DNA of 64,000 bases from a virus. Lineage: Duplodnaviria > Caudoviricetes. A model generated the notes under the pieces. That model did not search any database. It was not told the DNA's origin and was given only the letters and a program-made list of their open reading frames with translations. Position numbers and translations under genes: made by a program. Shown in pieces: positions 34,845 through 55,066 of this stretch. How positions within the stretch are numbered: the first letter of the stretch is position 1; every line of letters starts with the position of its first letter. The stretch is taken from IMG/VR virus record IMGVR_UViG_3300011113_000415; one strand, 5' to 3'.

Positions 34845-34868
34845 AAAACGCCCTTCGGGGCGTTTTTT
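34845..34868 (+). terminator. Rho-independent terminator after gp23 (probably bidirectional)
   Basis: AAAAA-CGCCC-TTCG-GGGCG-TTTTTT; C(UUCG)G tetraloop. Confidence 0.9.
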
Positions 34869-34869
34869 A

Positions 34870-34898
34870 TTGACAAAAATATTAAAAAAGTTTATATT
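34870..34898 (+). promoter_or_regulatory. Possible sigma70 promoter pointing antisense into the TPR-glycosyltransferase gene
   Basis: TTGACA-17 nt-TATATT. Confidence 0.35.
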
Positions 34899-36054
34899 AA
34901 ATCTTAAACCAACCCAAGAACTTGGCGATTTTATTCATAGGACCTGACCAGTCGCCATAGCGTTCTTGACGAAACAGTCTAGCAGTGGTATACCAAGGCG
35001 AGTCATCGCGATTCTGCATCCAGCGCCAGCAGTGGCCATAAGCATTGAGTGGGATCCATAACGGACGTCCCATGGCACCTGCTAGATGTGCGGCAGCAGT
35101 GTCTACTGAAATCACAAGATCCATGTGATGCATGAGTGCGGCTGTGTCAGCAAAATCGTTTATGGTGCCTGGGTAGCACTCTACTCCTGCTGCCTTGACC
35201 GTAGCAGTGTCTTCATCCGACGCATCTACCTGCAGGTTGATCCATTGATGTTCAGGAAATCGCCGCACCAGTTCGGCCATGGTCTCAGCCGGCATGCTTT
35301 TGTGTTGGTTGATCCAGGAGTCTTTGCGTCCTGACCATGCAATGCCAATTCTCATGCGTTGTTTTGGGATGCCCAGGCGTTCAGCCCAGGCCTGTACTCT
35401 AGCCTGATCAGGTTGCACATATTGCAAATAGTGTTGTACATTCTCCAGTCGCATGTTCAGCAGTCTTGGCAGGCTCATCATGGCCACCCAGTAGTCAAAA
35501 TCACCTATCACATCTTCAGTATTGGCAGTCACACTCAGGATGGCTGGGGGTGTGTTGATCAACAGGGGCTTGATACTGGGACTCACATGCAGTCTAATTT
35601 TGGCACCCCGGTCTTGCAAATTGCCACAGAATCTCAAAAACTGAATTTGATCTCCCAATCCCTGCTCACCTATGACCAAAATGGTCTTGTCACGTAGATC
35701 TTCACCGGCCCATTCAGGTCGGGGCAATCGAGGCTTGGTACCCTCCAGGTGTTCGTAGCGCCAGCGACTTTCGTACAAGCGCCAACCCTGCTCATAGTTG
35801 CCCAGCATGAGATGTGCCACGGCCAGATTGAATTCTGCTGTGACATTTGTGGGATCTATCAGTCGTGCTGTTTCCAAAAAAGGAATGGCACGTTGAGCGT
35901 CGCCCATTTCTCTCAGCACGTTGCCATAGTTGTTGAAACCTGCAAAGCAGTTGAGGTCTTGCACAAAAGCCTGTGCATAGCATGCTATGGCCTGTTCGGG
36001 ACGGTGTTGTTCTCTTGCTTGATTGCCCAGGGCAATTAGATCATCTGTGGTCAT
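34897..36054 (-). CDS. TPR-repeat plus GT-B (GT9-like) glycosyltransferase
   Basis: Three to four TPRs (FNNYGNVLREMG, AEFNLAVAHLMLG); GEQGLGDQIQFLRF; DLVISVDTAAAHLAGAMG; likely start MTTDD 5 nt after a TAAATA box (36060-65). Confidence 0.85.
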   Translation of the reverse strand: MTTDDLIALGNQAREQHRPEQAIACYAQAFVQDLNCFAGFNNYGNVLREMGDAQRAIPFLETARLIDPTNVTAEFNLAVAHLMLGNYEQGWRLYESRWRYEHLEGTKPRLPRPEWAGEDLRDKTILVIGEQGLGDQIQFLRFCGNLQDRGAKIRLHVSPSIKPLLINTPPAILSVTANTEDVIGDFDYWVAMMSLPRLLNMRLENVQHYLQYVQPDQARVQAWAERLGIPKQRMRIGIAWSGRKDSWINQHKSMPAETMAELVRRFPEHQWINLQVDASDEDTATVKAAGVECYPGTINDFADTAALMHHMDLVISVDTAAAHLAGAMGRPLWIPLNAYGHCWRWMQNRDDSPWYTTARLFRQERYGDWSGPMNKIAKFLGWFKI

Positions 36055-36103
36055 CACAATATTTAAATCAATGACAGCACAGCCCAAAATAAACCAATGA
36101 CCA

Positions 36104-36199
36104 TAAATACAGTCAACGCAATTGGGCGTTTTATGCGGCGATTAATACCCACCGCGTAGCGGCTAGAACCCGCATGGGGCTTCTATAAGGAGAAATCAA
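36104..36199 (+). promoter_or_regulatory. Late promoter (TAAATA 36104-09) plus GC-rich structured 5' leader of the 276-aa gene
   Basis: Stems AACGC/GCGTT, ATGCGG/CCGCAT, CCGC-GTA-GCGG and TAGAA-CCC/GGG-TTCTA abut the AAGGAG SD. Confidence 0.55.
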
Positions 36200-37030
36200 A
36201 TGGGAAGAGCACTAAAAATTCAAAAAAACAACGTTGGTTCAGGTAGTACAGTTACCGGTTCCAATCCTGAGGTCACAACCTACAACCAAACTATCTTGAC
36301 AGATGCTGGTTTTCCAAACTTCGGTAGTTTAACCTCACCAGCAACGCCATACAACTCGGCTGACACACTCAATTCTGATCAGTTCCTGGGTGTGGTCGGT
36401 GGTTCACCTACTACCAGCACAGCCAGTGCCACATTCCCAGAAGTGTTGGCAGCAGTCAATATTACTTTAGCAGATGGTACAAGCACTACTGCCGGTGCTG
36501 GTCGTTTGATACGCCAAAAAGGTGCGCACAAGTTCTTGGTGGCCTACACAGCCAGTGCCACAGCAGATGAAAGTTTTATTGTTGGACAGGCCTATCAGAT
36601 TTCCACGCTGGGCACAACCGACTGGCAGGCATGCGGCGCAGGTGCTGATGCCGCAGTGGGTGACATATTCACAGCAGTAGCAGTGGGATCAGGCACAGGC
36701 GAAGGCTATCCAGTCGGCGTATGTGTGTTGAGCAACACAGGCACACCCACAGCCGGCAATATGAGTATTCAATACTCAGTGGGCGACTCAGCCGCTGTGT
36801 ACGCCAGTTATATTACCAACAAATGGATTCGTGACTGGAACGGTATGACTTATGGCAACTACAGCAGTAGCAATCTTGGTGAAAACATCTACTCAAGTGA
36901 AAACTTCTATGTGACCAACTTCTTCACAGACGAAGGCACTGTGACATGGTCAGGTGCAGAAATTATCAACGGTGTGGAAGCCGCAAACGGTTCACTGCAA
37001 TTGGCACAAGTGGTCAACGTTACAAGTTAA
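36200..37030 (+). CDS. Putative virion structural protein (276 aa, Thr/Gly/Ser-rich), function unknown
   Basis: Late promoter, strong SD, own terminator; composition like head decoration/fibre proteins. Confidence 0.65.
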   Translation: MGRALKIQKNNVGSGSTVTGSNPEVTTYNQTILTDAGFPNFGSLTSPATPYNSADTLNSDQFLGVVGGSPTTSTASATFPEVLAAVNITLADGTSTTAGAGRLIRQKGAHKFLVAYTASATADESFIVGQAYQISTLGTTDWQACGAGADAAVGDIFTAVAVGSGTGEGYPVGVCVLSNTGTPTAGNMSIQYSVGDSAAVYASYITNKWIRDWNGMTYGNYSSSNLGENIYSSENFYVTNFFTDEGTVTWSGAEIINGVEAANGSLQLAQVVNVTS

Positions 37031-37043
37031 TTTGTAACCTGTC

Positions 37044-37078
37044 AACATCCTCCTTGCTAACTACAAGGAGGATTTTTT
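37044..37078 (+). terminator. Rho-independent terminator
   Basis: ATCCTCCTTG-CTAACTA-CAAGGAGGAT followed by a T tract. Confidence 0.8.
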
Positions 37079-37666
37079 ATGACCAGAGCATTTGTATTGG
37101 GCAACGGCATCAGCCGACAAGCAGTTGATCTAACTCAACTGCAATCATTGGGTAAAATTTACGGCTGTAACGCACTCTATAGAGATTTTGAACCTGATTG
37201 TCTTGTGGCCACTGATAGACCCATTGCTGAAACTATTCAAAATTCTGGATATAGTATTCGACACAAATTTTATACTCGCAAGCCCTTACACGGGTTGGGT
37301 GCATTGCCTGTACCTAAAAAATATCATGGCAACAGTTCAGGACCTATTGCAGTTGCCCTTGCGGCACTAAACGGAAATCAAACGGTATACATGTTGGGTT
37401 TTGATATGGGACCTACAGAAAATCAACGGTTTAACAATGTGTATGCCGGCACAGATTTTTATAAAAAACACGACGCCGCTCCTACATATACTGGTAACTG
37501 GGTCCGACAATTGTGTGCGATTGCCCAAGATTTTCCGCAAACTAACTTTGTAAGAGTATGCGGAGCAACCACAGCAGACATAAAAGAGTTAAAAGTGTTT
37601 AGTAATCTACTTCATATACCCCTACAGATGTTTTTAGATCGTGTGGTAACTGGTCAAGATCTCTAG
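37079..37666 (+). CDS. Putative Maf/DUF115/CstII-like (GT-A variant) sugar transferase (195 aa)
   Basis: AFVLGNGIS...IYGCNALYR...NSSGPIAVALA...VYMLGFD pattern shared by sialyltransferase/Maf-fold proteins. Confidence 0.55.
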   Translation: MTRAFVLGNGISRQAVDLTQLQSLGKIYGCNALYRDFEPDCLVATDRPIAETIQNSGYSIRHKFYTRKPLHGLGALPVPKKYHGNSSGPIAVALAALNGNQTVYMLGFDMGPTENQRFNNVYAGTDFYKKHDAAPTYTGNWVRQLCAIAQDFPQTNFVRVCGATTADIKELKVFSNLLHIPLQMFLDRVVTGQDL

Positions 37667-37699
37667 TGTCCAGCGAGTTCTGGGTATGTTTGATTGCGG

Positions 37700-37705
37700 T
37701 AAATA
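37700..37705 (+). promoter_or_regulatory. Late promoter box; 15-mer TTGCGGTAAATATAC is identical to 53023-53037
   Basis: Direct sequence comparison. Confidence 0.7.
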
Positions 37706-37724
37706 TACTCAGAGACTCTAATTT

Positions 37725-40673
37725 ATGACACAGTATATCATTGACATCGGTGCATACCCAGATGATGGGCAAGGCAGTCCGTTACGCACAGCATTTGACT
37801 ATACCAACGAAAACTTCAATCAGATTTTTGCGGCTGGGCCGGTACTCAGCAACATTCAAATTGGTAATAACACTATTACCACCACAGTACTCAACAGCAA
37901 CTTAATTCTAAGCCCATCTGGCATTGGGCGTGTACAATTCAACAACACCCTGTTTCCTAGACTGGACAATGTTTACGACATTGGCACACCCAGTCTACGG
38001 TTTAATTCTATCTATTTAGGCACAGGCGGTATTGATACCACGGGTGGTATAACAACCACAGGCAATATCACAGCCAATTATTTCATTGGCAATGGCAGTC
38101 AACTCACAGGCATCGTGGCCACAACTGGCAGTGAAGTTGTCAACGGCAACAGCAACATTCTTATTCCTAATCCTGGTTCTAATATTGTTGTCACAGTCAA
38201 TGGTACCAGCAATGTTGTGACATTTGCTAACACAGGTGTGTATGTTGCTGGCACTGTGACTGCCACAGGTAACATTGCCGGCAATTATATTTTGGGTAAC
38301 GGTGCGCTACTGACTGGTATCAACATTGGTTATGGCAACTCAAACGTAGCAGACTTCTTGCCCACATACACAGGCAACCTAGCGAGCCTGACAGGACCAG
38401 TTACAACCACTGCTAACATAACGGGCGGCAACTTACGCACCGCGGGTCAGATCACAGCCACGGGCAATATCACTAGCGGTAATGTTAACACAGGTAGATT
38501 AAACGCAGGCTATGTCACTGTAGGTACTACTATAAGTGCAATTGGTAACATCACTACTAATAGTTACTTTATTGGTGATGGTAGTTTACTTACAGGCATT
38601 AATGCCAACTATTCAAATGCCAATGTGGCTGCCTTCTTGCCCACGTACACAGGCAATCTGGTCAGCCTGACTGGCCCAGTAACAACCACAGCCAATGTCA
38701 CAGGTGGCAACCTGAGAACCTCAGGCACAATACTAGCCTCAGGAAATATCACTGCGGCTAATCTTGACACCAGCAGAGTAAATGCGGCCAACATCACTGC
38801 CAGTGGTTCGGTATCAGCGGTGGCCAACATTATCACCAGTGCATACTTCATTGGTGATGGCAGTCAACTCACAAACTTGCCAGCAGGTAATTATTCTAAT
38901 GCCAATGTAGCAGCCTTCTTGCCAACTTACACTGGCAGTATGCCAAACATGACTGGACTGCTGAGAACCACTGCCAACATTGTAGGTGGAAACATTTCCA
39001 TAGTTGGCAACATCACAGGCAGCAATGTTGATACCAGCAGAGTTAATGCCGGCAATGTCACGGTAAGTGGACCAGTAAGTGCTGTAGGTAATATCACAAC
39101 CAGTGCATACTTCATTGGTGATGGCAGTCAACTAACAAACTTGCCAGCCGGCAACTACTCAAATGCCAATGTGGCTGCATTCTTGCCCACATACACTGGT
39201 AATTTGGTCAGTCTAACAGGACCAGTTACAACCACTGCTAACATCACAGGTGGTAATTTACAAACCACAGGACAGGTATCGGCCACTGGCAACATAACTG
39301 GTGGCAACATTGATGCCAGCAGAGTCAATGCCAACACAGTTACAGTTAACACAACTATAAGTGCTGGTGGAAATATTACTGGCAATAACCTAATAGGGTC
39401 CACAGTCACAGCCACCACAGTCACAGCCATTGCCAATGTTGTTGGTGGTAATGTTATAACTAGCGGGCAAGTTTCTGCCGTTGGTAACATACAAGGTGGC
39501 AATTTAAATGCACCTGGCGGTACTGTAACATCTTATATTGTTAGTGCTACTGGTCGAGTACAGGGTGGTAATCTTGTTACAACTGGATATATTACAGCCA
39601 CAGGCAACATCACAGGCGGCAACGTAGATACTGGTAATATACATGCTGGCAACGTCAATGTGGACAGTAGAATATCGGCTGGCGGCAATGTTATTGGACA
39701 ATACTTTATTGGTAATGGTAGTCAACTAACAGGTATTAATGCTTCTGGTGGTACCAGTATAAACTATGGTAACAGCAATGTCAAAATAGACAGTGCCAAC
39801 GGCAACGTCAGTATCAATATTGACAATAGCAGTAACGTAGCATTGTTTACCACTTCGGGTGAGTATGTCACTGGAGTTGTCAGTGCCACTGGAAATATTC
39901 TTGGTAATGGCTTCTTGTCAGACAATTATTACTACGCCAATGGTACACCTGTTCCTTTTGGTATTACCTACACTGCCAACGTAGCCCCTCCTGCAACCTC
40001 CAAAGTAGGCGATCAATGGTACGACACTTCTAATGACGTTTTGTATGAGTATATCAATGATGGTACTAGCACTTACTGGGTTGATACCACTTCACCGGCA
40101 TTTGCTGGAGGAGTTGTAGCCAATGTGGCCATATCAGGTACTCTGGTGCCAGTGGCTAATTTAACCTATGACATTGGCACCAGCACAGTCTATTTCCGTA
40201 ACACCTACACTCAAAATCTTTACACCAACAACAGATTATTAGCACGAAATATGCCTGTGGGTGCTGTGGTACAAACAGTAATGAGTTCGAGCCTAGGTGG
40301 TGGTATAACAAATAGCACTGCTTATGCTGATATCAGTTATGCAAACGTAACCATTACGCCTTCCAGCACAACCAGTAAGATTTTTGTCATAGCAACTGGC
40401 ACTGCAAGTTTTACATCATTGTCGGGACAAAACGTTAATGCTGATACTCAATTGGTTAGAAGTCCCAGTACCAGTTTGCAAATACAAACCTGCGGTACAA
40501 CAGTAACAGGCGGCGGCATTGGTGTAACTGGTTCTATTGCATACAGTTATATAGACTCACCGGGCACCACTGGTGCTGTGACCTACAAACTACAGCAAAA
40601 AGTAAGCAACGCCAGTAGCACACTGACCAGTACAAATATTTGGTTGATAGCCATGGAGATTGCCGCATCATGA
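37725..40673 (+). CDS. Tail fibre/adhesin-like protein with four ~90-aa internal repeats (982 aa)
   Basis: N-terminal IDIGAYPDDGQGSPLRTAF; repeats YFIGDGSQLT...ANVAAFLPTYTGNL; C-terminal domain with AYSYIDSPGTTGAVTYKLQ. Confidence 0.75.
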   Translation: MTQYIIDIGAYPDDGQGSPLRTAFDYTNENFNQIFAAGPVLSNIQIGNNTITTTVLNSNLILSPSGIGRVQFNNTLFPRLDNVYDIGTPSLRFNSIYLGTGGIDTTGGITTTGNITANYFIGNGSQLTGIVATTGSEVVNGNSNILIPNPGSNIVVTVNGTSNVVTFANTGVYVAGTVTATGNIAGNYILGNGALLTGINIGYGNSNVADFLPTYTGNLASLTGPVTTTANITGGNLRTAGQITATGNITSGNVNTGRLNAGYVTVGTTISAIGNITTNSYFIGDGSLLTGINANYSNANVAAFLPTYTGNLVSLTGPVTTTANVTGGNLRTSGTILASGNITAANLDTSRVNAANITASGSVSAVANIITSAYFIGDGSQLTNLPAGNYSNANVAAFLPTYTGSMPNMTGLLRTTANIVGGNISIVGNITGSNVDTSRVNAGNVTVSGPVSAVGNITTSAYFIGDGSQLTNLPAGNYSNANVAAFLPTYTGNLVSLTGPVTTTANITGGNLQTTGQVSATGNITGGNIDASRVNANTVTVNTTISAGGNITGNNLIGSTVTATTVTAIANVVGGNVITSGQVSAVGNIQGGNLNAPGGTVTSYIVSATGRVQGGNLVTTGYITATGNITGGNVDTGNIHAGNVNVDSRISAGGNVIGQYFIGNGSQLTGINASGGTSINYGNSNVKIDSANGNVSINIDNSSNVALFTTSGEYVTGVVSATGNILGNGFLSDNYYYANGTPVPFGITYTANVAPPATSKVGDQWYDTSNDVLYEYINDGTSTYWVDTTSPAFAGGVVANVAISGTLVPVANLTYDIGTSTVYFRNTYTQNLYTNNRLLARNMPVGAVVQTVMSSSLGGGITNSTAYADISYANVTITPSSTTSKIFVIATGTASFTSLSGQNVNADTQLVRSPSTSLQIQTCGTTVTGGGIGVTGSIAYSYIDSPGTTGAVTYKLQQKVSNASSTLTSTNIWLIAMEIAAS
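38260..39300 (+). repeat. Four tandem coding repeats; spacing of the FLP codons is 279, 282 and 264 nt
   Basis: TTCTTGCC anchors at 38355, 38634, 38916, 39180. Confidence 0.85.
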
Positions 40674-41326
40674 TAACACTGTTTCATGCCATTCAAAGTC
40701 TGGTGCCTGGCGCAGAAGTCAGCGTGGGTATATACGATCAAACAATAGTATGGCACCAGCCCGAGACTGCACCCGTTACTATGGAGCAGATTTTAGCAGA
40801 ACAACAGCGTCTGCAACAGGCCTATGACTGGAACGAATATCAAAGAAATCGAGCCAAAGAGTATCCCAGTATTGAAGAACAATTGGATGCCCTGTATCAT
40901 GCTGGTGTGTTTCCTGCAGAAATGGCAGCCCGAATACGAGCAGTGAAAGAAAAATATCCACGCTATACTCCAAACAACACTCAAACTGCTGAACAACCAG
41001 CACCAAAAATGTCAGTTGAGCAGTGGCTAGCAGAACAAACAAAAATGACAGCCGAACAGTGGTTGGCACAACAACAGTCCACTGCACCCATGACTAGAGA
41101 ACAATGGCTGGCATCACAGGCTCAAGTCAACACCGCGCCACCCCAACAGTCCACAAGCACAGTAAACAGAACAATGACTGCTGAAGAATGGCTGCGAGAA
41201 CAGTCCACTCAAGAAAATTCACAAAAAATGACCCGAGAACAGTGGTTAGAACAGCAAAAAACCCTTGTACAACCGCCGCCAATGACTCGAGAACAGTGGT
41301 TGGCGGAGCAGGCAAAAATACAATGA
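40670..41326 (+). CDS. Fibre-associated small protein (chaperone-like N-terminus) with six C-terminal MxxEQWLxxQ repeats
   Basis: YQRNRAKEYPSIEEQLDALYH motif; start is either the track's 40640 or the ATGA-coupled ATG at 40670. Confidence 0.7.
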   Translation: MITLFHAIQSLVPGAEVSVGIYDQTIVWHQPETAPVTMEQILAEQQRLQQAYDWNEYQRNRAKEYPSIEEQLDALYHAGVFPAEMAARIRAVKEKYPRYTPNNTQTAEQPAPKMSVEQWLAEQTKMTAEQWLAQQQSTAPMTREQWLASQAQVNTAPPQQSTSTVNRTMTAEEWLREQSTQENSQKMTREQWLEQQKTLVQPPPMTREQWLAEQAKIQ

Positions 41327-41382
41327 CCAAGAAAGAAAAGTTTCTAATTGGCATAAGTACCACATAGCAGGAGCAAAGTCAT

Positions 41383-44300
41383 ATGTCATTCCCAGTATCG
41401 CCTACAAATGGACAAGTTACCGTAGTAAATCAGGTATCATACCAATATTCCAGCGCCACCAACTCGTGGACTAGAATTCTCAGCACAGCCAACATTATCA
41501 CAGCCAATACTGTTGCTGTAAACGGTGCGCTCACAGTAGGTACGACCATTGTTGCCAACGGTAACATAACAGGCAGTTACTTTATTGGTAATGGCTCGCA
41601 GTTGACTGGTGTTACTGCTACCAGTGCTGGCTTCCCAATTACTTCGGGTACCAGTAATATTGCGGCTCCTGTTGCCAACGGCAACATTGCAATCACTGTA
41701 GGCGGTACCGCTAACGTTGCGGTATTTGCAACTACTGGTGAATACATCACAGGGCTTTTAAGTGTAAGTGGTAATGTAAATGGCGGCAACTTAAACACTG
41801 TTGGTTTAGTAACTGCTACAGGTAATATACAAGGTGGAAATCTGGTTACAGGCGGCCTGGTATCAGCCACTGGCACAGTAACTGGTTCTACACTAATTGG
41901 CTCAGTGGTCACAGCAAGTGGCAATGTGGTTGGTGGTAATATCAACACAGGTGGAGTGATATCAGCAACAGGTAATATCACAAGTGTGGCCAACATCGCT
42001 GGTGGTAATTTATTAACGGCTGGCCAAGTATCAGCAACTGGTAATGCCACTTTTGGAAATATCAGTACCAGTGGTTCAGGCGGCAATATTTCAGGTGCCA
42101 ACGTAATTTCTGGAACAACACTCAGTGCCACTGCTAACGTGGTAGGTGGCAATATTAACACAGGTGGGCTAGTAACTGCCACTGGTAACATCACTGGTGG
42201 AAATGTATTAACTGCTGGTCAAGTTTCAGCCACTGGTAACGTTACTGGTAATTATATTTTGGGTAATGGCTATTTCTTAACAGGTGTTATCACCTCAGTG
42301 GCCAATATCAACAACGGAAATTCTAACGTTTCAATCTATACCGCTGGCGGCAACGTAGCAGTCAGTGTAGGCAACGTGGCCAACGTGGCTGTGTTTACCA
42401 CAGCAGGCGAACTTATTTCTGGATTATTAAGTGTCAGCGGCAACGTCACTGGCGGTAACGTCCTAACAGGTGGACTGGTTTCAGCAACTGCCAACGTTAC
42501 TGGTGGTAATTTGTTGACTGGTGGGTTAATATCTGCCACAAGTACAATTACAAGTGCTGCCAACATCACTGGCGGTAACGTCCTAACAGGTGGACTAGTA
42601 AGTGCAACAGGAACAGTAACTGGTTCTACCTTGATCGGCACAGTAGTCACTGCAACAGGCAACATTGTTGGTGGTAACATCAATACAGGTGGCGTAATCA
42701 GTGCCACAGGTAATATCACAAGTGTGGCCAACATCGCTGGTGGTAACTTGCTCACCGGCGGATTGGTAAGTGCTACTGCCAACGTCACAGGTGGCAATCT
42801 GGTTACTGGTGGACAAGTATCAGCAACAGGTAATATCACAAGTGTGGCCAACATCGCTGGTGGCAATATCTTGACTGGCGGATTGGTAAGTGCTACCGCT
42901 AATATTACAAGTGCTGCCAACGTCAATGCCAACAACGTGATGGCAACCACAATTGTCAATGCACCAAGTTTGACAGGTACTATTGTAAGTGTAACAGGTA
43001 ACGTAACTGGTGGTAACGTTAACACAGGTGGTGTAATTAGTGCTACGGGTAATATTACCAGCGTGGCCAACATTGCTGGTGGCAATATCTTGACTGGTGG
43101 ATTGGTGTCAGCAACTGCTAATATTACAGGCGGTAACTTGCTGACAGGTGGTTTAATATCAGCAACTAGTACTATCACAAGTGCTACCACAATCACTGGC
43201 GGCAATTTGGCCACAGGCGGTTATGCAAGTGCCACAGGTAATGTCACTGGTGGTAACATCAACACAGGTGGTTTGGTCACAGCAACTGGTAACGTGGTTG
43301 GTGGCAATATCTCTACTTCAGGTGTGGTAACTGCCGCAGGCAACGTATTTGGCAACAACATTTTTGCCACAACATCAGTTAGCACAGCCGGAAACGTAAT
43401 TGCCGGCAACGTAAACACAAGCACGATTCGTCCAACTAGCGGTGCGTTGACAATCAGCACAGGTACAGGTGCAATCAACTTGAACCCTGCTGGTAATATT
43501 GTGTTGAGTGCTAATACTTACATTAACAATTTGGCAAGTCCGGTACAAAATGCTGATGCGGCAACTAAAGAATATGTTGATAACTTTGCCACAACAGGCA
43601 TCAGTTATCACCAGCCAGTATACGTAGCAACAACTGCTAACTTGGCCACAACTACAGGTGGTACAATTACCTACACACAGCCCAATGGCGCAGCCAATGG
43701 TGTTGGTGCAAAACTAACAACTACTACGTCGTTCAACTTGATCGACACAGGTAATGTGCAAACAATTGGTACACGTATTTTGGTTAAAGACGAGGGCAAT
43801 GCAGTATACAATGGTGTTTACACCTGGGCCAACGCCACAAACATTGTGCGTTCCACAGACACTGACGAATACGGCGCAGATAGCGCAAACGCATTCAGTA
43901 TCAACGACTACTTCTTTACCACAAACGGTAACGTCAACGCCGGCACAGCCTTTGTTGTGAGTGCTCCAGCAGGCACAATTACCTTTGGTACGTCAAACAT
44001 CACGTTCAGTACATTCAGTACTAGCCAAGTTTACTCGGCCAATACTTCAGCAGGTTTGAGTTTAACTGGTACTGTATTTTCAGCCAAAGTTGACAACACA
44101 ACCACAGCATTTGATGGTACAGGTAACATCATTGTCAAGGCCAGTGCTCAACTCACAACACCCAACATTGGTGCCGCTACAGGTACAAGCCTAAACGTCA
44201 CTGCCAACGTTGATGCAGGCAACTTGCGTACAGGTGGACTAGTAAGTGCTACCGGCAACGTAACTGGCGGTAACATCACAACAGGCGGACAAGTAACTGC

Positions 44301-47028: not shown

Positions 47029-47038
47029 AGGATAGAGA

Positions 47039-50000
47039 ATGGCCTTTCCAGTATCGCCGACGAACGGCCAAACTGCTGTTGTTAACAACATAACATACCA
47101 GTTTTCCAACGTGGGCAACACGTGGACACGCATACTGTCTACAGCCAATATCATCACAGCCAATACCTTGGCCTCAAACGGCTACATCTCGGCTGTTGGC
47201 AATATCATAACCGGCAACTATTTCATAGGTAACGGATCGTTGCTGACTGGAATAACATTAAATCCAGGAAACATCTCTAACGGTACTTCAAACGTCACTG
47301 TTGTGAGTTCAGGTGGCAACGTCACTGTGGGTGTGGGCGGAACAGGCAATGTAGCAGTGTTTGCCACTACAGGCGAGTATGTAACAGGTGTAGTATCAGC
47401 GTCGGGCAACATCACCGGCGGTAATATTTTAACAGCGGGATTGGTAAGTGTAACTGGTACACTGAGTGTGACTGGTGCCACAACATTAGGCACAGCCAGC
47501 ACAGGTAACTTGTCAGCAGGCAATGTGACCACAGGCGGTTTAGTAAGTGCCGCAGGCAATGTCACTGGTGGTAATTTATTAACGGCTGGACTAATCAGTT
47601 CTACAGGCACAATCACAGGATCAAGTCACTTGGGCGCAGTGGTCAGTGTCACTGCCAATGTCACTGGCGGTAACATCTTAACTGCTGGATTGATATCAGC
47701 CACCGGCACCATCACTTCAGCAGCCAACGTGTTGGGTGGCAACTTAACCACGGCAGGGTTGGTCACGGCAACTGGTAATGTTACAGGTGGAAACATAATC
47801 ACAGGCGGATTAGTATCAGCAACTGCCAACGTAACTGGTGGTAATATCGTAACTGCAGGGTTGATATCAGCCACTGGCACTATCACTTCAGCAGCCAACG
47901 TGTCGGGTGGCAATCTTACCACAGCAGGTTTGGTCACAGCAACTGGTAACATTATTGGCGGCAATTTAACCACGGCTGGATTGATCACTGCCACAGGTAA
48001 TATCACCGGTGGCAACATATTAACAAGTGGATTGATATCAGCCACTGGCAACGTGCAAGGCGGTAATCTTGTATTGACCACTGGTGCTTTGACTTTAAGC
48101 AACGTAAACGTAACTTCTAGCACATCAGCAATTCAGGGTTGGAGTTACGCCAACGTCAGTTTATCTATCTCAGCGTCAGAAGGTACGTCTACTGGTTTGT
48201 TCTTTGGCAACTCTGGATCAAGTTTTTATGTAGTTGGAACCACAAACGATCGTGTTTATCAATACAACATGAGCACTACCAACATGGCCAACACTGGCAC
48301 TGTGTTTGGCAACGTAAGCGTAACCACACAAGATGGTACACCAGCCGATTTGTTTATTGACAGTACTGGTGCCAACATGTATATGTTGGGATCTACCAAT
48401 AGAGTTGTATATCAATACACACTGTCATCGCCGTGGAATATTACCACAGCATCTTATGCTACGCTAAGTGCCAACATCAGTGCTCAAGAAGCAACACCAA
48501 CTGGTGTATGGTTCAAGCCCGACCTTACAACCATGTATTTGGTTGGTACGACTAACTCAACAGTTTATCAATACACACTGACAACGCCAGGTAACATAGC
48601 AACCGCTGCCTACGCAACTAAATCAGTGTCGGTATCTACAGCAACTACACCACACGCTGTAAATTTAAGCAGCGACGGTGCCAAGATGTGGGTTCTAAGT
48701 CAATCCGTTCCAGCGGTGTATGAATGGAACCTGGCTACTCCTTGGGATATCAGCACAGCAACTCACTCATTGGGCAACAGTTTTGGTATTCTTCCGCAAG
48801 AAGGCACACCTACTGGTATGTATGTTGACCTGGCAAATACCAAGGCATGGGTAGTTGGATCGGCTAGTGATGCAGTATTTCAATACAACACAGCAAACTC
48901 AATCATTGCTCAAGCCAATGCAGTGGGTATTCAAGGACAATTGGCGGTTCAGGGCAATGCTTGGTTTGGTCAACAAGTACAATTTGGTGGTGCAGTTCGA
49001 GCAGAAACCACACTAACTGTTGACTCATCATTTTCAGCCGGTAGCACCTCGACTTTTTCGACCACAACTGGCACCATTGGTATTGGCACTAGCCAAACCA
49101 CAGGAACCACAACCATTGGCGGCACTGCACAAACTGGTAATATTTTGATAGGCCAGAGCACTGCCACACAAATTTTAAACATTGGCACAGGTGCAGTCTC
49201 TAGCGCCAACACCAAGAGTATTAATATAGCAGCCAACGGTGTTGCAAACTCTGTCAGTAACGTGACTATTTTCAGTAACGTAGCCGGTAATAGCACAATG
49301 ACCATTGGCGCAAACACTGGCAACACCACGGTGAGTCTCACTGGTAACACCATAGTTGCCATTGCCAACACATCGGGCTCAGCACTCAGCGTAGCAGGTA
49401 ATATCACAGGTGGTAACATATCTACTGCTGGATTACTGTCAGCCACAGCCAACGTTACTGGCGGTAATTTACTAACTGCTGGACTGATTTCTGCCACAGC
49501 CAATATTACAGGTGGTAACGTACTATTTGGTGCAGGCGTAGTGTCAGGTACCGGTAACATCTATGGTGGCAACATATCTGGCACCATCATAGCCAGTTCA
49601 TTCTCTACCGCTGGCAATATCACCGGTGGCAATTTGCTAACAGGTGGTCTTGTATCAGCCACATCAACAATCACCTCGGCTGCCAATATCACTGGTGGTA
49701 ACTTGCTCACAGGTGGACTTGTGTCAGCCACTGGCAACGTCACTGGTGGTAACTTGCTCACAGGTGGACTGATCAGCGCCACTTCGACTATAACTTCAGC
49801 AGCCAACATCACTGGTGGCAACATCTTGACAGGTGGATTGATCAGTGCCACAGCCAACGTTGTGGCCAACAACGGTATGTTCACTAACATTGTGAACACA
49901 GCAAGTTTCACTGGATCAGTGGCATCACTAAGTGGTAACGTAACAGGTGGCAATCTACTAACTGCTGGTCTGGTATCAGCCACCAGTACTATCACAAGTT

Positions 50001-51505
50001 CGGCAAACATCACAGGCGGTAATCTACTAACTGCTGGCCTGGCCAGTGTTACAGGTAACGTGATCGCTGGCAACGTCAACACCGCCACTGTTAGACCCAC
50101 AAGCGGCGCATTGACTCTAAGTACAGCATCGGGTGCTATCAACTTGAACCCAGCCGGTAACATTGTTCTAAGTGCCAACACCTATATCAACAACTTGAAC
50201 AGTCCAGTTCAGGATGCAGATGCTGCCACCAAGGCCTATGTTGACAACTTTGCGGCACAAGGCATTTCATACCACTCACCAGTGAGCGCAGCCACCACAA
50301 CCACTTTGGCCACAACCACAGGTGGTACAATCACTTACACACAGCCTAACGGGGCGTCAAATGGTATTGGTGCATATCTAAGTACTACAGGTAGTTTCAA
50401 CTTGATTGACACAGTAAACGTTCAGACTGCAGGAACCCGTATTCTTGTCAAGAACGAAGGCAACGCTGTATACAATGGCGTGTACACTTGGTCAAATGCC
50501 ACTGCTATTGTACGTTCAACTGACACAGATGAATATGGTGCAAATAGTTCAGAACAGTTGAGTCTGAATGACTATTTCTTTGTGTCAAATGGTAATGTCA
50601 ACGTTGGCAGTGCTTATGTTGTTAACGCACCCACAGGTACAATCACATTTGGTACTTCAAACATCACGTTTGCCCAGTTCAGTTCAAGCCAAGTCTACAC
50701 GGCCAATGGTTCAGCAGGTTTGAGTTTAACCGGTACTGTATTTTCGGCCAAAGTAGACAACACAACCACAGCCTTTGATGGCACAGGTAACATTATTGTC
50801 AAAGCCAGTGCTAACTTGACCACACCCAACATTGGTGCCGCAACAGGCACAAGTTTGAGTGTCACAGGTAATGTCACAAGCGGTAACGTCAACACCGGGG
50901 GCGTAATTACAGCAACTGGTAATGTAACTGGTGGTAACATCCTGACAGGTGGATTATTGTCTGCTACAGCAAACGTAACCGGTGGCAATCTGTTAACAGG
51001 CGGGTTGATTAGTGCCGCTGGTTCTATTACCACAGGCGGTGATCATAGCCTAACAGGTAACATCGTTGACACTGGTACTCTTTGGATCAACACCAGCAGT
51101 AACGGCAACATCAACTTAAATCCCAATGGCACTGGACAGACCAATATACCAGTGGGCATACTCAGCGTTACTGCTAACATTTCTGGTGGTAATCTATTAA
51201 CACCGGGCCTAGTTAGTGCCGCTGGTACCATAACTGGCTCGAGTCACCTAGGATCAGTAGTTTCAGTAACAGCCAACATTACTGGTGGCAATTTGCTCAC
51301 AGGTGGGTTGATAAGTGCCACAGCCAACATCACAGGCGGTAACATTATCACTGCCGGCTTGATCACAGCATCAGGCAATGTGAACGTGCTGGCCAACGTG
51401 AACATTGGTAATGCTAATTCAGTGACCTGGGCCAATGCATCAGGTATAAGAGTGTACACATATTATAACAACAGCGCCACAAGTTTAGACACGGTGTTCT
51501 TATAA
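47039..51505 (+). CDS. Long fibre/adhesin protein (1488 aa), paralogous modules plus an inserted beta-propeller-like domain
   Basis: N-terminus nearly identical to the 41383 gene; 17-aa repeats; propeller-type repeats GxxFxxDxxxMYxxGxxxxxVYQYxLxxPWxIxTA at ~48130-48900. Confidence 0.8.
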   Translation: MAFPVSPTNGQTAVVNNITYQFSNVGNTWTRILSTANIITANTLASNGYISAVGNIITGNYFIGNGSLLTGITLNPGNISNGTSNVTVVSSGGNVTVGVGGTGNVAVFATTGEYVTGVVSASGNITGGNILTAGLVSVTGTLSVTGATTLGTASTGNLSAGNVTTGGLVSAAGNVTGGNLLTAGLISSTGTITGSSHLGAVVSVTANVTGGNILTAGLISATGTITSAANVLGGNLTTAGLVTATGNVTGGNIITGGLVSATANVTGGNIVTAGLISATGTITSAANVSGGNLTTAGLVTATGNIIGGNLTTAGLITATGNITGGNILTSGLISATGNVQGGNLVLTTGALTLSNVNVTSSTSAIQGWSYANVSLSISASEGTSTGLFFGNSGSSFYVVGTTNDRVYQYNMSTTNMANTGTVFGNVSVTTQDGTPADLFIDSTGANMYMLGSTNRVVYQYTLSSPWNITTASYATLSANISAQEATPTGVWFKPDLTTMYLVGTTNSTVYQYTLTTPGNIATAAYATKSVSVSTATTPHAVNLSSDGAKMWVLSQSVPAVYEWNLATPWDISTATHSLGNSFGILPQEGTPTGMYVDLANTKAWVVGSASDAVFQYNTANSIIAQANAVGIQGQLAVQGNAWFGQQVQFGGAVRAETTLTVDSSFSAGSTSTFSTTTGTIGIGTSQTTGTTTIGGTAQTGNILIGQSTATQILNIGTGAVSSANTKSINIAANGVANSVSNVTIFSNVAGNSTMTIGANTGNTTVSLTGNTIVAIANTSGSALSVAGNITGGNISTAGLLSATANVTGGNLLTAGLISATANITGGNVLFGAGVVSGTGNIYGGNISGTIIASSFSTAGNITGGNLLTGGLVSATSTITSAANITGGNLLTGGLVSATGNVTGGNLLTGGLISATSTITSAANITGGNILTGGLISATANVVANNGMFTNIVNTASFTGSVASLSGNVTGGNLLTAGLVSATSTITSSANITGGNLLTAGLASVTGNVIAGNVNTATVRPTSGALTLSTASGAINLNPAGNIVLSANTYINNLNSPVQDADAATKAYVDNFAAQGISYHSPVSAATTTTLATTTGGTITYTQPNGASNGIGAYLSTTGSFNLIDTVNVQTAGTRILVKNEGNAVYNGVYTWSNATAIVRSTDTDEYGANSSEQLSLNDYFFVSNGNVNVGSAYVVNAPTGTITFGTSNITFAQFSSSQVYTANGSAGLSLTGTVFSAKVDNTTTAFDGTGNIIVKASANLTTPNIGAATGTSLSVTGNVTSGNVNTGGVITATGNVTGGNILTGGLLSATANVTGGNLLTGGLISAAGSITTGGDHSLTGNIVDTGTLWINTSSNGNINLNPNGTGQTNIPVGILSVTANISGGNLLTPGLVSAAGTITGSSHLGSVVSVTANITGGNLLTGGLISATANITGGNIITAGLITASGNVNVLANVNIGNANSVTWANASGIRVYTYYNNSATSLDTVFL

Positions 51506-51506
51506 A

Positions 51507-53021
51507 ATGCCAATAGCAACTAGACTCACCAATACAGGAACATTATTGGTCAACGGCTCGTTTGACGAGAATACCTCAATCACTCCTGCAAAATTTCGCA
51601 CAACATCAACCACGGTGTATGCTGGCACATTGGATGAGGCCAGCCTGACCGCAGGTGCTATTAGTTTCAATGGAACTAGTCAGTATTTGACTGCTACAAG
51701 TCCGAACTTATCCGGAACTTGGACAGTAGAGATGTGGTGTTACTGGACAACCGGAGCAACACAAACCACTATAGTTAGTTTTAACAATGGTAGTAATAGT
51801 GGAATTAATTTGTGGAAAAACTCATCTAATCAACTGGTAGCCGACGATGGAGTAAATGGTGTGACGCCAATGTCCACAGTCACTCCCACAATAAATGCAT
51901 GGAACCATATTGCGTTTGTTAGAGTCGGAACAACCACAAGTGGCTATGTAAATGGAGTATTGGCCGGAACAACCACTTATACTCCAGGAACAACATCCGT
52001 GATTAGTGTGGGTCGATATAATGGTACTCCTTTTTATTATTTTCCAGGATATATTTCCAATCTTCGAGTGGTCAATGGAACAGCAGTTTACACAGCCGCA
52101 TTTACTCCACCACAGTCAATACTACCTGCTATATCAGGAACAAGTTTTCTGTTGAATGTAGTTAACTCCGCAAACTTTATTCAAGACAACAGCCCAAATG
52201 CATATACCGTAACCAACAACGGTACGGCTACCTGGACTGCTACTGGCCCATTCAATCAAGGTTCTACCACATTAAAACAACGACTAGTCAATGACGGCAC
52301 TCAGGAAGTGTACACTCAATTTGATGAATTTACGGGAGCACCAGTTGTTAATACCAATTTGATGGTTTGGGTAGATGCCGGACAAACAGCCAGTTATTCA
52401 GGTTCGGGTACCACTTGGACTGATCTTAGTGGTAATGGTAAAACTTATACTTTAGGCAACTCGCCAACTTTTAATTCAATCACCGGCGGCGGAGTTATAA
52501 CATTTGCTGGAGCCAGCAGTCAGTATGCCACCACAGCCTCTACACTGTTCAACTCCACCACAACCAATACCTACAGCATGAACATTTGGGTTTATCCTAC
52601 AGGTGCTGGCCAGATTGTACAAGTGGATGGACAATCAACTCCCAACACCGGATATCATTATACTGCCCTAGAAATTACTGCGGCAGGATTGATATATTTC
52701 GGACAATGGACCGGCACAAACTCTGTGATTGCCACAAGTTCTCAGAGTTTAAATGCCTGGTACAACCTGGCGATCACTTATGATGGAAACACAGCCACAG
52801 CCTATGTCAATGGAACCAGCGTAGGATCTAGTACTATTGCATGGAGTGCTCCAGGCGCTAGTACATTTTTTGGTTTAATGGCGCAGGATGGTACCAATAT
52901 GACTGGCACAGCGGCCTATGCCAGCGGTAGTATTGGTGCGTTTATGGTGTATAACCGTGCTTTAACTGCAGATGAAGTCACAACAAATTTCAACGCTCTG
53001 CGAAACAGATACGGTAGATAA
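51507..53021 (+). CDS. Tandem LamG/concanavalin-A-like lectin-domain protein (504 aa)
   Basis: WTVEMW...WNHIAFVR...YVNG...GYISNLRV and WYNLAITYDG...YVNG...MVYNRALTADEV. Confidence 0.8.
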   Translation: MPIATRLTNTGTLLVNGSFDENTSITPAKFRTTSTTVYAGTLDEASLTAGAISFNGTSQYLTATSPNLSGTWTVEMWCYWTTGATQTTIVSFNNGSNSGINLWKNSSNQLVADDGVNGVTPMSTVTPTINAWNHIAFVRVGTTTSGYVNGVLAGTTTYTPGTTSVISVGRYNGTPFYYFPGYISNLRVVNGTAVYTAAFTPPQSILPAISGTSFLLNVVNSANFIQDNSPNAYTVTNNGTATWTATGPFNQGSTTLKQRLVNDGTQEVYTQFDEFTGAPVVNTNLMVWVDAGQTASYSGSGTTWTDLSGNGKTYTLGNSPTFNSITGGGVITFAGASSQYATTASTLFNSTTTNTYSMNIWVYPTGAGQIVQVDGQSTPNTGYHYTALEITAAGLIYFGQWTGTNSVIATSSQSLNAWYNLAITYDGNTATAYVNGTSVGSSTIAWSAPGASTFFGLMAQDGTNMTGTAAYASGSIGAFMVYNRALTADEVTTNFNALRNRYGR

Positions 53022-53028
53022 CTTGCGG

Positions 53029-53034
53029 TAAATA
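53029..53034 (+). promoter_or_regulatory. Late promoter box 7 nt before ATG 53042
   Basis: GGTAAATAT. Confidence 0.65.
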
Positions 53035-53041
53035 TACAACT

Positions 53042-53836
53042 ATGGCCAAACTCAACTCCGGAACCAGAATTTATGGCAACGTTACAATAGATACGTTTGT
53101 CACAGCCACAGGCAACGTGATTGGTGGTAACGTATTGACTGGTGGATTAATATCAGCCACATCAACAATCACAAGTGCTGCCAATATCACTGGTGGCAAC
53201 ATCTTGACTGGTGGATTAATCAGTTCAACTGGCACTATTACAGGTTCAAGTCATCTTGGTTCTGTAGTGTCAGTAACTGCCAATGTCACTGGTGGCAACG
53301 TGTTAACAGCAGGATTGATTTCTGCCACATCAACAATCACCTCAGCAGCCAACGTGATTGGTGGAAATATTACCACAACTGGTGTAGTCACAGCAACTGG
53401 TAATATCACAGGTGGCAATGTTTTAACTGGCGGGTTGGTCAGTGCCACTGCTAACGTTGCAGGTGGAAATCTTACAACAGTTGGGCAAATTTCAGCAACT
53501 GGTAATATCACTGGTAATTATTACATTGGAAATGGTGCGTTCTTAACTGGACTCAACGTAGGTGCAGCCAGCCAAATTGCCAACGGTGCTACGACTATCA
53601 GTATCCCCCAGGCTTCGGGCAATATTACTTTCAATGTGGCGGGTGCGTCAAATACTGTGGTTATAAACCTGGGCAGTTTGACCATGTACGGCACATTTGC
53701 GGGACCAAAAACGCTGAACGCTAACGTGTCGGTGGCAGATTCAGTAAATGCCCTGCTGTTGGGCCCTGTTACTCTGGCAAATAACTACAACATCACAGTG
53801 CCCGATACATCAACGCTGTATGTTTTTGCACCATAA
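53042..53836 (+). CDS. Short fibre-like protein with 17-aa repeats (264 aa)
   Basis: MAKLNSGTRIYG; the same SATxNITGGNxLTGG repeats. Confidence 0.7.
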   Translation: MAKLNSGTRIYGNVTIDTFVTATGNVIGGNVLTGGLISATSTITSAANITGGNILTGGLISSTGTITGSSHLGSVVSVTANVTGGNVLTAGLISATSTITSAANVIGGNITTTGVVTATGNITGGNVLTGGLVSATANVAGGNLTTVGQISATGNITGNYYIGNGAFLTGLNVGAASQIANGATTISIPQASGNITFNVAGASNTVVINLGSLTMYGTFAGPKTLNANVSVADSVNALLLGPVTLANNYNITVPDTSTLYVFAP

Positions 53837-53857
53837 ATACAGCCAGGAATAGAATTT

Positions 53858-55066
53858 ATGTCATTATCACTAGACGGCACAACAGGTATATCAGCAACGG
53901 GTAACATCATATCTAGTGGTGGTATTATCTCCGCTACAGGCAACATCTACGGCGGAAACATTATTGGTACTTTGGTAGTTTCTACTGCTACATTTTCGGG
54001 TAACGTCACAGCAGGTAACTTGCTGACCGGTGGGTTAATAAGTGCAACTGGCACAGTCACAGGATCAAGTTTCCTTGGCTCAGTGGTTTCTGTCACAGCC
54101 AACGTAACCGGTGGCAACTTGCTCACAGGTGGACTTATATCAGCCACTTCTACAATCACATCAGCGGCCAATATCACCGGTGGCAACTTGCTCACAGGTG
54201 GATTGATAAGTTCAACTGGTACAATCACTGGCTCAAGCCATTTAGGATCAGTTGTGTTTGTAACAGCCAACATAACTGGTGGTAACGTACTAACTGCTGG
54301 CGTTGTAAGTGCAACAGGCAACATTAACGCCAACTTTTTTATTGGCAACGGTAGTCAGTTATCGGGTCTAAGTGCCAGTAAAATATTCAACGGAACATCA
54401 GAAGCCAACATTGGTGCATCAGGTGGCAATGCTAACATTACAATTGGTGGTACATCAAACGTGGTGGTTGTTGCAACCACTGGTGTACTAGTTACTGGTA
54501 TCACAAGTGCAACAGGTAACATTACAGGTGGTAATTTGACCACAGCCGGTATCTTAACAGTAAACTCGGGCAATGCTTCAGGTGCAGTTATTGTTAATGC
54601 AGGCGGCAACGCTGTAGGTAATATTGGCAGTGCCACAACCTACTTCAACAGATTATATGCTCAAGCCACCACAGCACTCTACGCTGACTTGGCTGAGGTT
54701 TACAAAAGTGATGCACCATATCCCCCAGGTACTGTGTTGGTGTTTGGTGGTACGCAAGAAGTCACAATGAGCACAGTGAGTCACGATACCAAAATTGCTG
54801 GAGTAGTTTCTACGCACCCAGCACACGTTATGAATTCAGGCTTGCAATCAGAATTCACTGTGGAAGTTGGCTTGATTGGTCGTGTGCCGTGTCGTGTAAT
54901 TGGACCAATCTCAGCAGGTGATCGTGTGGTGTCAAGCAATCGTGCTGGTGTTGCCGAACGCCTAGACATGTCACAGTATCAACCAGGCGTAATCATTGGC
55001 AAGGCAGTAGAAAGTTATTCAGGCTTAGATGTGGGCACGATTGAAGTTGTGGTTGGTAGACTATAA
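53858..55066 (+). CDS. Fibre-like protein (402 aa) sharing the C-terminal domain of the 1881-aa protein
   Basis: TAAATA at 53834 and AGGA SD; YFNRLYAQATTALYADLAE...AGVVSTHPAHVMN...GLIGRVPC. Confidence 0.75.
   Translation: MSLSLDGTTGISATGNIISSGGIISATGNIYGGNIIGTLVVSTATFSGNVTAGNLLTGGLISATGTVTGSSFLGSVVSVTANVTGGNLLTGGLISATSTITSAANITGGNLLTGGLISSTGTITGSSHLGSVVFVTANITGGNVLTAGVVSATGNINANFFIGNGSQLSGLSASKIFNGTSEANIGASGGNANITIGGTSNVVVVATTGVLVTGITSATGNITGGNLTTAGILTVNSGNASGAVIVNAGGNAVGNIGSATTYFNRLYAQATTALYADLAEVYKSDAPYPPGTVLVFGGTQEVTMSTVSHDTKIAGVVSTHPAHVMNSGLQSEFTVEVGLIGRVPCRVIGPISAGDRVVSSNRAGVAERLDMSQYQPGVIIGKAVESYSGLDVGTIEVVVGRL

Follow-up and report, generated by a model that had tools for sequence, protein, structure and literature searches.

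FlmG of Caulobacter crescentus and Brevundimonas subvibrioides is a soluble glycosyltransferase (GT) in which an N-terminal tetratricopeptide repeat (TPR) domain binds flagellin and a C-terminal GT-B domain sets donor specificity (PMC7591256; bioRxiv 2022.03.25.485807), and it acts on the subunit of a surface filament before assembly. TPR domains choose the protein acceptor in FlmG and also in Maf-1, and Maf cores without a binding domain require an adaptor such as GlfM or a fused TPR. The bacterial autotransporter heptosyltransferases TibC and AAH are WaaC-like GT-B enzymes that O-glycosylate serine in the cytoplasm with ADP-heptose, a host lipopolysaccharide (LPS) precursor, and their substrates are Gly/Ser/Thr/Asn-rich beta-helical repeat proteins (PMC4358343). 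Virion glycosylation is also known in giant viruses, and mycobacteriophages are described as having phage GT genes beside structural genes and glycans on virion proteins (Freeman et al. 2023, as cited in PMC12619734). Here we analyzed a gene cassette of a virus of the class Caudoviricetes (IMG/VR record IMGVR_UViG_3300011113_000415), which consists of a TPR-containing GT of the GT9 type (TPR-GT), a divergent gene for a 276-residue protein (p276), a short Maf-like transferase (mini-Maf), and a block of fiber genes. In the literature, we found no paper in which a TPR-GT9 or a mini-Maf enzyme is described as part of a phage virion module.

The analyzed DNA, a stretch of 64,000 nucleotides (nt) that we call the window, is part of an uncultured T4-like freshwater jumbo phage, with a source contig of about 335 kb, and was also found in lake, river, and viral metagenomes. 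Its capsid gene shares 64 to 67% nucleotide identity with those of Rak2/PBECO4-type and other jumbo phages, and the host is probably a Gram-negative freshwater bacterium. An initial annotation had proposed that this phage glycosylates its own fibers or capsid. We give a probability of roughly 45% to the reading that the cassette acts late and in the cytoplasm to O-glycosylate proteins of the virion surface under the guidance of the TPRs, in the first place p276 and possibly the fibers, with mini-Maf as an optional second transferase. New with respect to the initial annotation are the invariant pairing of the TPR-GT with p276 and its conserved late boxes, the placement of the enzyme in GT9 rather than GT41 with its motifs intact, the origin of the fiber sequons in a repeat, and the size of the related bacterial family. 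The core of the cassette has the following features.

34897 to 36054, minus strand: TPR-GT9 glycosyltransferase (P0001), from Pfam, an alignment of homologs, the predicted structure, and fold matches
34900 to 35706, minus strand: GT-B catalytic domain of the GT9 type, residues 128 to 396, from fold matches, the WaaC/WaaF alignment, and invariant residues
35758 to 36048, minus strand: three TPRs, residues 14 to 110, from six model helices; presumed acceptor-binding domain
36060 to 36065, minus strand: TAAATA late-type box; the ATG of the TPR-GT at 36054 follows after 5 nt
36104 to 36109, plus strand: TAAATA late-type box; the start codon of p276 follows after about 96 nt
36200 to 37030, plus strand: p276 (P0003), a 276-residue Ser/Thr/Gly-rich protein
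37079 to 37666, plus strand: mini-Maf, a GT42-like transferase (P0002) of 195 residues, from phrog and fold matches
37725 to 55066, plus strand: fiber block, seven genes up to 55066

Three TPRs are joined to a GT9-type GT-B domain

The TPR-GT open reading frame (ORF) at 34897-36087(-) has 396 codons and opens at TTG 36087. Because residue M12 is nearly invariant among homologs, the true start is likely ATG 36054, which would give a protein of 385 residues. Pfam detected TPR_2 (3.2e-10) and Glyco_transf_9 (PF01075; E 9e-9, 35.4 bits against a gathering cutoff of 22) at residues 210 to 343, and an AlphaFold model (predicted local distance difference test [pLDDT] 88) consisted of six helices forming three TPRs at residues 14 to 110 and a GT-B domain at residues 128 to 396. 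In structural alignments, the TPR module matched designed TPRs and the TPRs of OGT with Z scores of 16 to 18 and a root mean square deviation (rmsd) of 1.6 to 2.1, and phmmer matched the OGT TPRs at 1e-14. The best match of the GT-B domain was 3tov, a GT9 structure (Z 18.4, rmsd 3.1 over 252 aligned residues), and WaaF (1psw) was aligned over 247 residues with a Z of 16.6. The initial annotation had recognized a TPR plus GT-B enzyme here, on which Pfam, the model, and the fold matches now agree; the family to which it belongs, left for later assignment at that time, is the GT9 type by Pfam, fold, and WaaC/WaaF motifs.

In a MAFFT alignment with WaaC and WaaF of Escherichia coli, the sequence G-L-G-D146 of the TPR-GT stands opposite S-M-G-D13 of WaaC, and V-D329-T-A-A-A-H334 stands opposite V-D261-T-G-L-S-H266. 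We take the catalytic roles of WaaC Asp13 and Asp261/His266 to be as generally given in the literature. D146, D329, and H334 are invariant in 22 of 22 homologs, down to 48% identity, and the enzyme therefore looks catalytically competent. A search of PDB sequences with a profile of the GT domain gave chance matches only (E > 0.6), and the relation to GT9 is based on Pfam, fold, and manual alignment.

When the whole protein was searched with Foldseek, SPINDLY (SPY) and OGT ranked first (E 1e-9), but the alignments were poor (template modeling score, 0.25 to 0.3; rmsd, 13 to 18), and these matches reflect the common TPR plus GT-B layout. The GT41 catalytic domain of OGT and SPY (PF13844) was not found in the TPR-GT by Pfam at an E value of ≤0.01, and no GT41/HMW1C-type domain was found in the 89 to 100% complete genomes of three relatives with TPR-GT orthologs.

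Compared to the described systems, the phage enzyme shares with FlmG the N-terminal TPRs and the C-terminal GT-B domain in one soluble protein. FlmG, however, has 596 residues, a longer TPR region, and CMP-pseudaminic or CMP-legionaminic acid as donor, whereas the phage enzyme has 385 residues, three TPRs, and a GT9-type domain. With WaaC and WaaF (CAZy GT9) it shares the G-D and D-T/S-x-x-x-H motifs and the fold, at only 19 to 23% identity; it differs from them by its additional TPR domain and late-gene context, and lipid A-Kdo (Kdo, 3-deoxy-D-manno-octulosonic acid) is unlikely to be its acceptor. TibC and AAH have an N-terminal beta-barrel, a thumb made of a beta-hairpin, and a four-Cys iron finger (PMC4358343), whereas the N terminus of the phage enzyme is an all-helical TPR domain, and no cysteine is invariant or nearly so in the alignment of 22 homologs.

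The TPR-GT is invariantly paired with p276

The relatives that we examined were first 33 and then 80 viral contigs carrying a TPR-GT 48 to 91% identical to that of the window, out of at least 556. The gene for p276, which lies between the two transferase genes and was absent from the description in the initial annotation, turned out to be the constant partner. Counting only loci with at least 1 kb of upstream sequence, the TPR-GT and a p276 homolog form a divergent pair in 70 of 70 loci (GT identity, 52 to 91%). The gap between them measures 102 to 159 nt in all loci but one (814 nt), and the pair is intact even where identity falls to 32% for p276 and to 52% for the GT. Of 33 loci, 29 have fiber-like sequence within 6 kb of the TPR-GT; a sheath-type gene follows directly instead of fibers in two loci. 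The co-occurrence of the GT with fibers, which the initial annotation had suggested checking, is frequent, but the invariant neighbor is p276 and not the fibers.

The two late-type boxes are conserved as well. In 56 of 57 distinct related intergenic regions, a spacing of 5 nt separates TAAATA from the TPR-GT start, and in all 57 the other box is found at positions -89 to -101 relative to p276, while the flanking bases vary; this agrees with the late promoter box noted at this gene in the initial annotation. Within the window, 15 of the 23 TAAATA occurrences are located at most 120 nt upstream of gene starts, mostly of structural genes. TAAATA is thus gene proximal in this phage, which is consistent with a late promoter element of the T4 style; the T4 late promoter is TATAAATA. 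By their sequence context, both transferases appear to be under late-type control within a block of virion genes.

We also observed that only 2 to 9 nt, without a Shine-Dalgarno sequence, separate the end of TAAATA from the start codon at the TPR-GT (36055-36065(-)) and at the starts 9629(-), 28870(+), 53042(+), 58257(-), and 59490(+). These distances suggest that late mRNAs of the lineage, that of the TPR-GT included, are leaderless or nearly so.

p276 belongs to no known family, as it has no match in Pfam, PHROGs, or NCBIfam, and the ESM Atlas returned low feature scores only (0.76). Its N terminus, MGRxLKIQK, is invariant, and its C terminus, LAQVxN[VIYT]TS, is conserved across homologs; the linkers are rich in Ser, Thr, Pro, and Ala and contain many indels. 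In related loci, p276 is 32 to 92% identical and the capsid protein 87 to 99%, so that p276 evolves much faster. A central motif of about 50 residues is found in as many as 10 copies in uncharacterized phage proteins, 700 to 2,256 residues long, one of which starts with the tail-fiber domain Mtd_N. Its composition, its fast evolution, its termini, and the motif in common with giant fiber-type proteins suggest that p276 is a surface-exposed virion protein. A complex prediction for the TPR-GT and p276 (alignments A1 and A5) scored 0.00, which counts neither for nor against an interaction.

The motif, G-x-x-Y-x-I...G-x-T-x-W...G-A...V-G-x-I-F-T-A, is located at positions 36545-36710 of the window (residues about 115 to 170) and is covered by no Pfam family. 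It is also present in a 4,931-codon ORF of a relative, and locus L044 (G006:C1:48694-51852) is a further place listed for it.

Mini-Maf is reduced to a catalytic core

Mini-Maf matched phrog_30607 at 5.9e-33 and phrog_4603, annotated as alpha-2,3-sialyltransferase, at 1.7e-7, while no PF01973 (MAF_flag10) match was found in it by Pfam at an E value of ≤0.01. Its model (pLDDT 87) is a single domain that fills the whole 195 residues. Among 48,161 PDB representatives, the best fold match was residues 272 to 513 of the Maf structure 5mu5 (Z 12.8, 166 aligned residues), 3.3 Z units ahead of the next match, the MptE kinase 8sd5 (Z 9.5), which is followed by CstI 2p56 (Z 9.1). Foldseek gave a probability of 1.0 for the match to CstI/CstII, and mini-Maf has the N-terminal loop G-N-G-x-S in common with Maf and CstI/CstII. 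The description of this gene as Maf/CstII-like in the initial annotation is in good agreement with these matches. Mini-Maf shares the catalytic-core fold with Maf (MAF_flag10/DUF115) and with GT42 CstI/CstII but has neither the N-terminal nor the C-terminal flanking domain of Maf.

A mini-Maf gene is present in 58 of 63 related loci, and in the five loci lacking it, it was not found elsewhere on those partial contigs either. Because the gene has no late box of its own, it is probably cotranscribed with p276. The initial annotation had suggested looking for nucleotide-sugar genes elsewhere in the genome; neither CTP_transf_3 (CMP-sugar synthetase) nor NeuB was found in complete relatives of the phage. 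This argues against a nonulosonate donor made by the phage, and the donors for both transferases would therefore be host made.

Proposed activity and acceptors of the cassette

The analysis establishes the gene structure, folds, catalytic motifs, late boxes, and conserved pairing; from these features we infer a protein acceptor, its identity, the donor sugars, and the occurrence of any modification. The TPR-GT would be made late, from a promoter region common with the divergent p276 gene; a freshly synthesized virion protein would be bound by the three TPRs before assembly, while the GT-B domain would move a nucleotide-activated sugar to serine or threonine. By analogy with GT9 and bacterial autotransporter heptosyltransferase enzymes, the donor could be host ADP-heptose. 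The likeliest acceptor would be p276, which we rank first because of the invariant pairing and the common late control region; the fibers, with their Ser/Thr-rich repeats, and the capsid protein are secondary candidates. Mini-Maf lacks a domain for acceptor binding and may therefore either add to the sugar placed by the TPR-GT or depend on a partner protein, with a host-made activated sugar as donor. Action of the TPR-GT on a late virion protein would be the most economical reading, because the TPRs of FlmG and Maf-1 choose acceptors and because GT9-like enzymes O-glycosylate serine. From the proposal that the phage glycosylates its own fibers or capsid, we thus retain real and seemingly competent late enzymes, with a FlmG-like architecture in one case and a Maf-like fold in the other, but not the specific tie to the fibers.

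The TPR-GT9 architecture is not confined to phages. It occurs in 80 of 301 sampled Pseudomonadota genomes (E ≤ 1e-20), and a genome often has at least six scored copies, encoded by ORFs of 490 to 2,497 residues. These proteins form a large uncharacterized set of probable protein glycosyltransferases, of which the phage enzyme is a minimal member, and the many paralogs per genome fit diverse protein acceptors. As a separate observation, the Rhodocyclales homologs, which form a single clade, adjoin a paralog, a GT8-like gene, and a GspH-like pilin gene.

Alternatively, the transferases could act off the virion, on host envelope glycoconjugates such as the LPS inner core, on host proteins, or on nonstructural phage proteins; a late activity of this kind might hide the receptors on cell debris or change the physiology of the host. 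We regard this as unlikely but worth serious consideration, as several observations weigh against virion glycosylation and some of them would fit such targets. The catalytic domain is of the GT9 type with WaaC/WaaF-like motifs, and to our knowledge the LPS core is the only characterized acceptor of classical GT9 enzymes. In other phage contigs, a 48% identical TPR-GT adjoins Hsp70, tRNA, and nonstructural genes, with radical SAM, methyltransferase, and peptidase genes nearby, and neither a p276 homolog nor a capsid gene was found on these contigs, which are 2 to 30% complete. Similarly, the closest relative of mini-Maf in a cultured phage, gp096 of Pelagibacter phage HTVC008M, is located among DNA metabolism genes, between uvsY and a helicase gene, and not among virion genes. 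The 80 syntenic loci all come from a single phage lineage, in which the capsid protein is ≥87% identical, and the constant adjacency of the TPR-GT and p276 may be due to inheritance rather than functional coupling. In bacteria, flagellins were found in 29 of 30 homolog-rich genomes, often in the unusually high number of 10 to 20 copies (Flagellin_N matches), but among the matches listed, a TPR-GT9 gene and a flagellin gene share a contig in only three genomes, at distances of 11 to 67 kb, and a flagellin-type role may not be general in the family.

What speaks against a target off the virion is that LPS heptosyltransferases have no TPR domain, which would have no evident role with a lipid acceptor, and that the late-box control and the divergent pairing with a virion-type protein are strictly conserved. 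In addition, Pfam and phrog scans of the cassette proteins revealed no membrane-associated or export genes.

In the phage contigs of the Hsp70 group, the gene order (L030:7362-11146 and L033:7686-11155) is Hsp70/DnaK, a 90-residue hydrophobic membrane-like ORF, an apparent tRNA 3' end, and the TPR-GT. We considered a docking of the TPRs on the phage Hsp70 in this second group and dropped it; the Hsp70 ends in VVDAEVKETN and has no EEVD-type tail.

The sequons of the fibers are a by-product of a structural repeat

The fiber block consists of the following genes, all on the plus strand.

37725 to 40673: fiber-like protein of 982 residues, by composition; Chlorovi_GP_rpt at 1.5e-6; own late box
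40640 to 41326: 228-residue protein, not Ser/Thr-rich; phrog_9114 at 1.8e-20; tandem M-T-x-E-Q-W-L
41383 to 47028: fiber protein of 1,881 residues; 42 anchored 17-residue repeats; C terminus matching phrog_22593
47039 to 51505: fiber protein of 1,488 residues; 26 anchored repeats; N-terminal motif as in the 1,881-residue protein
51507 to 53021: 504-residue protein with two Laminin_G_3 (lectin-like) domains; Pfam 2e-35; phrog_8510, phrog_13163, and related
53042 to 55066: two short repeat-fiber proteins of 264 and 402 residues, with a late box each

As described in the initial annotation, the fiber-like proteins are rich in Ser, Thr, Asn, and Gly, nearly uncharged, and full of N-x-S/T motifs. 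In the six of them, S+T+N+G amounts to 46 to 53% and D+E+K+R to 2.3 to 6.7%, against 19 to 40% and 9 to 35% in the other proteins of the window, and they contain 186 sequons, mostly GNIT, GNVT, ANIT, and ANVT. From these, it had been argued that an HMW1C-like enzyme might N-glycosylate the beta-solenoid fibers at N-x-S/T in the cytoplasm, which we now consider very improbable. Shuffling within each protein predicts about 149 sequons from composition alone (per-protein z, 0.1 to 2.5; pooled z, about 3.6), and the excess arises because a 17-residue repeat ends in [GA]-N-[IV]-T. This unit, G-G-N-[LIV]-L-T-[GA]-G-[LV]-[IV]-S-A-T-[GA]-N-[IV]-T, also exists as a 23-residue variant and is present in 90 anchored copies, and its last four positions, of the type [GAS]-N-[IVL]-[TS], account for 119 of the 186 sequons. 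Composition and a structural repeat thus account for the fiber sequons, which are uninformative on glycosylation. Furthermore, neither the TPR-GT nor the three nearly complete relatives have the GT41/HMW1C-type domain that this route calls for. The TPR-GT instead has a GT9-like catalytic domain, and the only relatives of this type known to modify proteins attach the sugar in O-linkage to serine. In character, the 17-residue repeat resembles the substrates of TibC and AAH.

The 504-residue Laminin_G_3 protein resembles baseplate-wedge or virion structural proteins. The 228-residue protein, possibly a fiber assembly factor, carries tandem M-T-x-E-Q-W-L-x-x-Q units with a 36-nt period at its C-terminal end (window positions 40990-41320).

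Genes bordering the cassette

The cassette is flanked by genes for head and tail proteins.

Upstream of the major capsid gene: prohead protease-like gene, followed by a phrog_10922 gene (candidate scaffold position by synteny)
33608 to 34819, plus strand: major capsid protein (gp23-like; phrog_138, major head protein, 1.6e-99), the head-side edge of the cassette and a possible acceptor
34846 to 34870, no strand: GC-rich hairpin (GCCCC-TTCG-GGGGC type) with an A-run and a T-run at its two sides, read off the sequence
Beyond 55066, minus strand: NUDIX gene, tail-sheath-type gene, and virion protein

The capsid and TPR-GT genes converge on the hairpin, which could terminate transcription in both directions. 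In related loci, the capsid gene is located downstream of the TPR-GT in 39 of 44 cases, often with homing endonucleases inserted between the two. This gap is an insertion hotspot in relatives (L013:11167-13084, L024:12816-14481, and L019:11173-12725), where the inserts encode GIY-YIG/NUMOD3 homing endonucleases and, in L024, also a 1,251-residue protein and a Laminin_G_3 protein. Apart from homing endonucleases, the genes found in this gap in relatives are unknowns, and none is a sugar gene.

At the other end of the cassette, loci L017 (identical to L135) and L153 lack the fiber block, which measures about 17 kb in the window, between mini-Maf and the NUDIX/sheath-type genes. As the block is absent from these two loci, the fiber genes seem to behave as a movable cassette.

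Discussion

The TPR-GT might also serve mainly to chaperone or scaffold the assembly of p276 or the fibers, with a vestigial or irrelevant transferase activity, as TPR domains are common in chaperone adaptors and its TPR module superposes on Hsp70/Hsp90-binding TPRs (Z 16 to 17.6), but this is hardly credible for a protein whose GT-B domain makes up two thirds of its length, is its better conserved part, and keeps the putative catalytic Asp and the donor-binding D-T-x-x-x-H invariant in 22 homologs.

Glycosylation of virion surface proteins could be put in more specific terms. In this form, a widespread freshwater T4-like jumbo phage lineage would O-glycosylate p276, and perhaps its fibers, by a minimal TPR-GT9 enzyme using host LPS precursor sugars such as ADP-heptose, and mini-Maf would add a second, possibly CMP-activated sugar. 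Phages would then have their own equivalent of the heptosylation of autotransporters and the glycosylation of flagellins, and no earlier virion glycosylation system would have been described for phages of Gram-negative hosts. We consider it quite unlikely that all these details hold together. It would differ from the mycobacteriophage system, in any event, in its enzyme families, host, and phage type, here a T4-like jumbo myovirus.

If virion proteins are indeed the acceptors, an abundant lineage of freshwater jumbo phages, with at least 556 viral contigs carrying the enzyme, would join mycobacteriophages and giant eukaryotic viruses among those with glycosylated virions. The large uncharacterized family of bacterial TPR-GT9 proteins would also gain its first tractable acceptor. 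The TPR-GT of 385 residues and its neighbor of 276 residues form a small, coexpressible pair for studying how TPRs choose the target of glycosylation.

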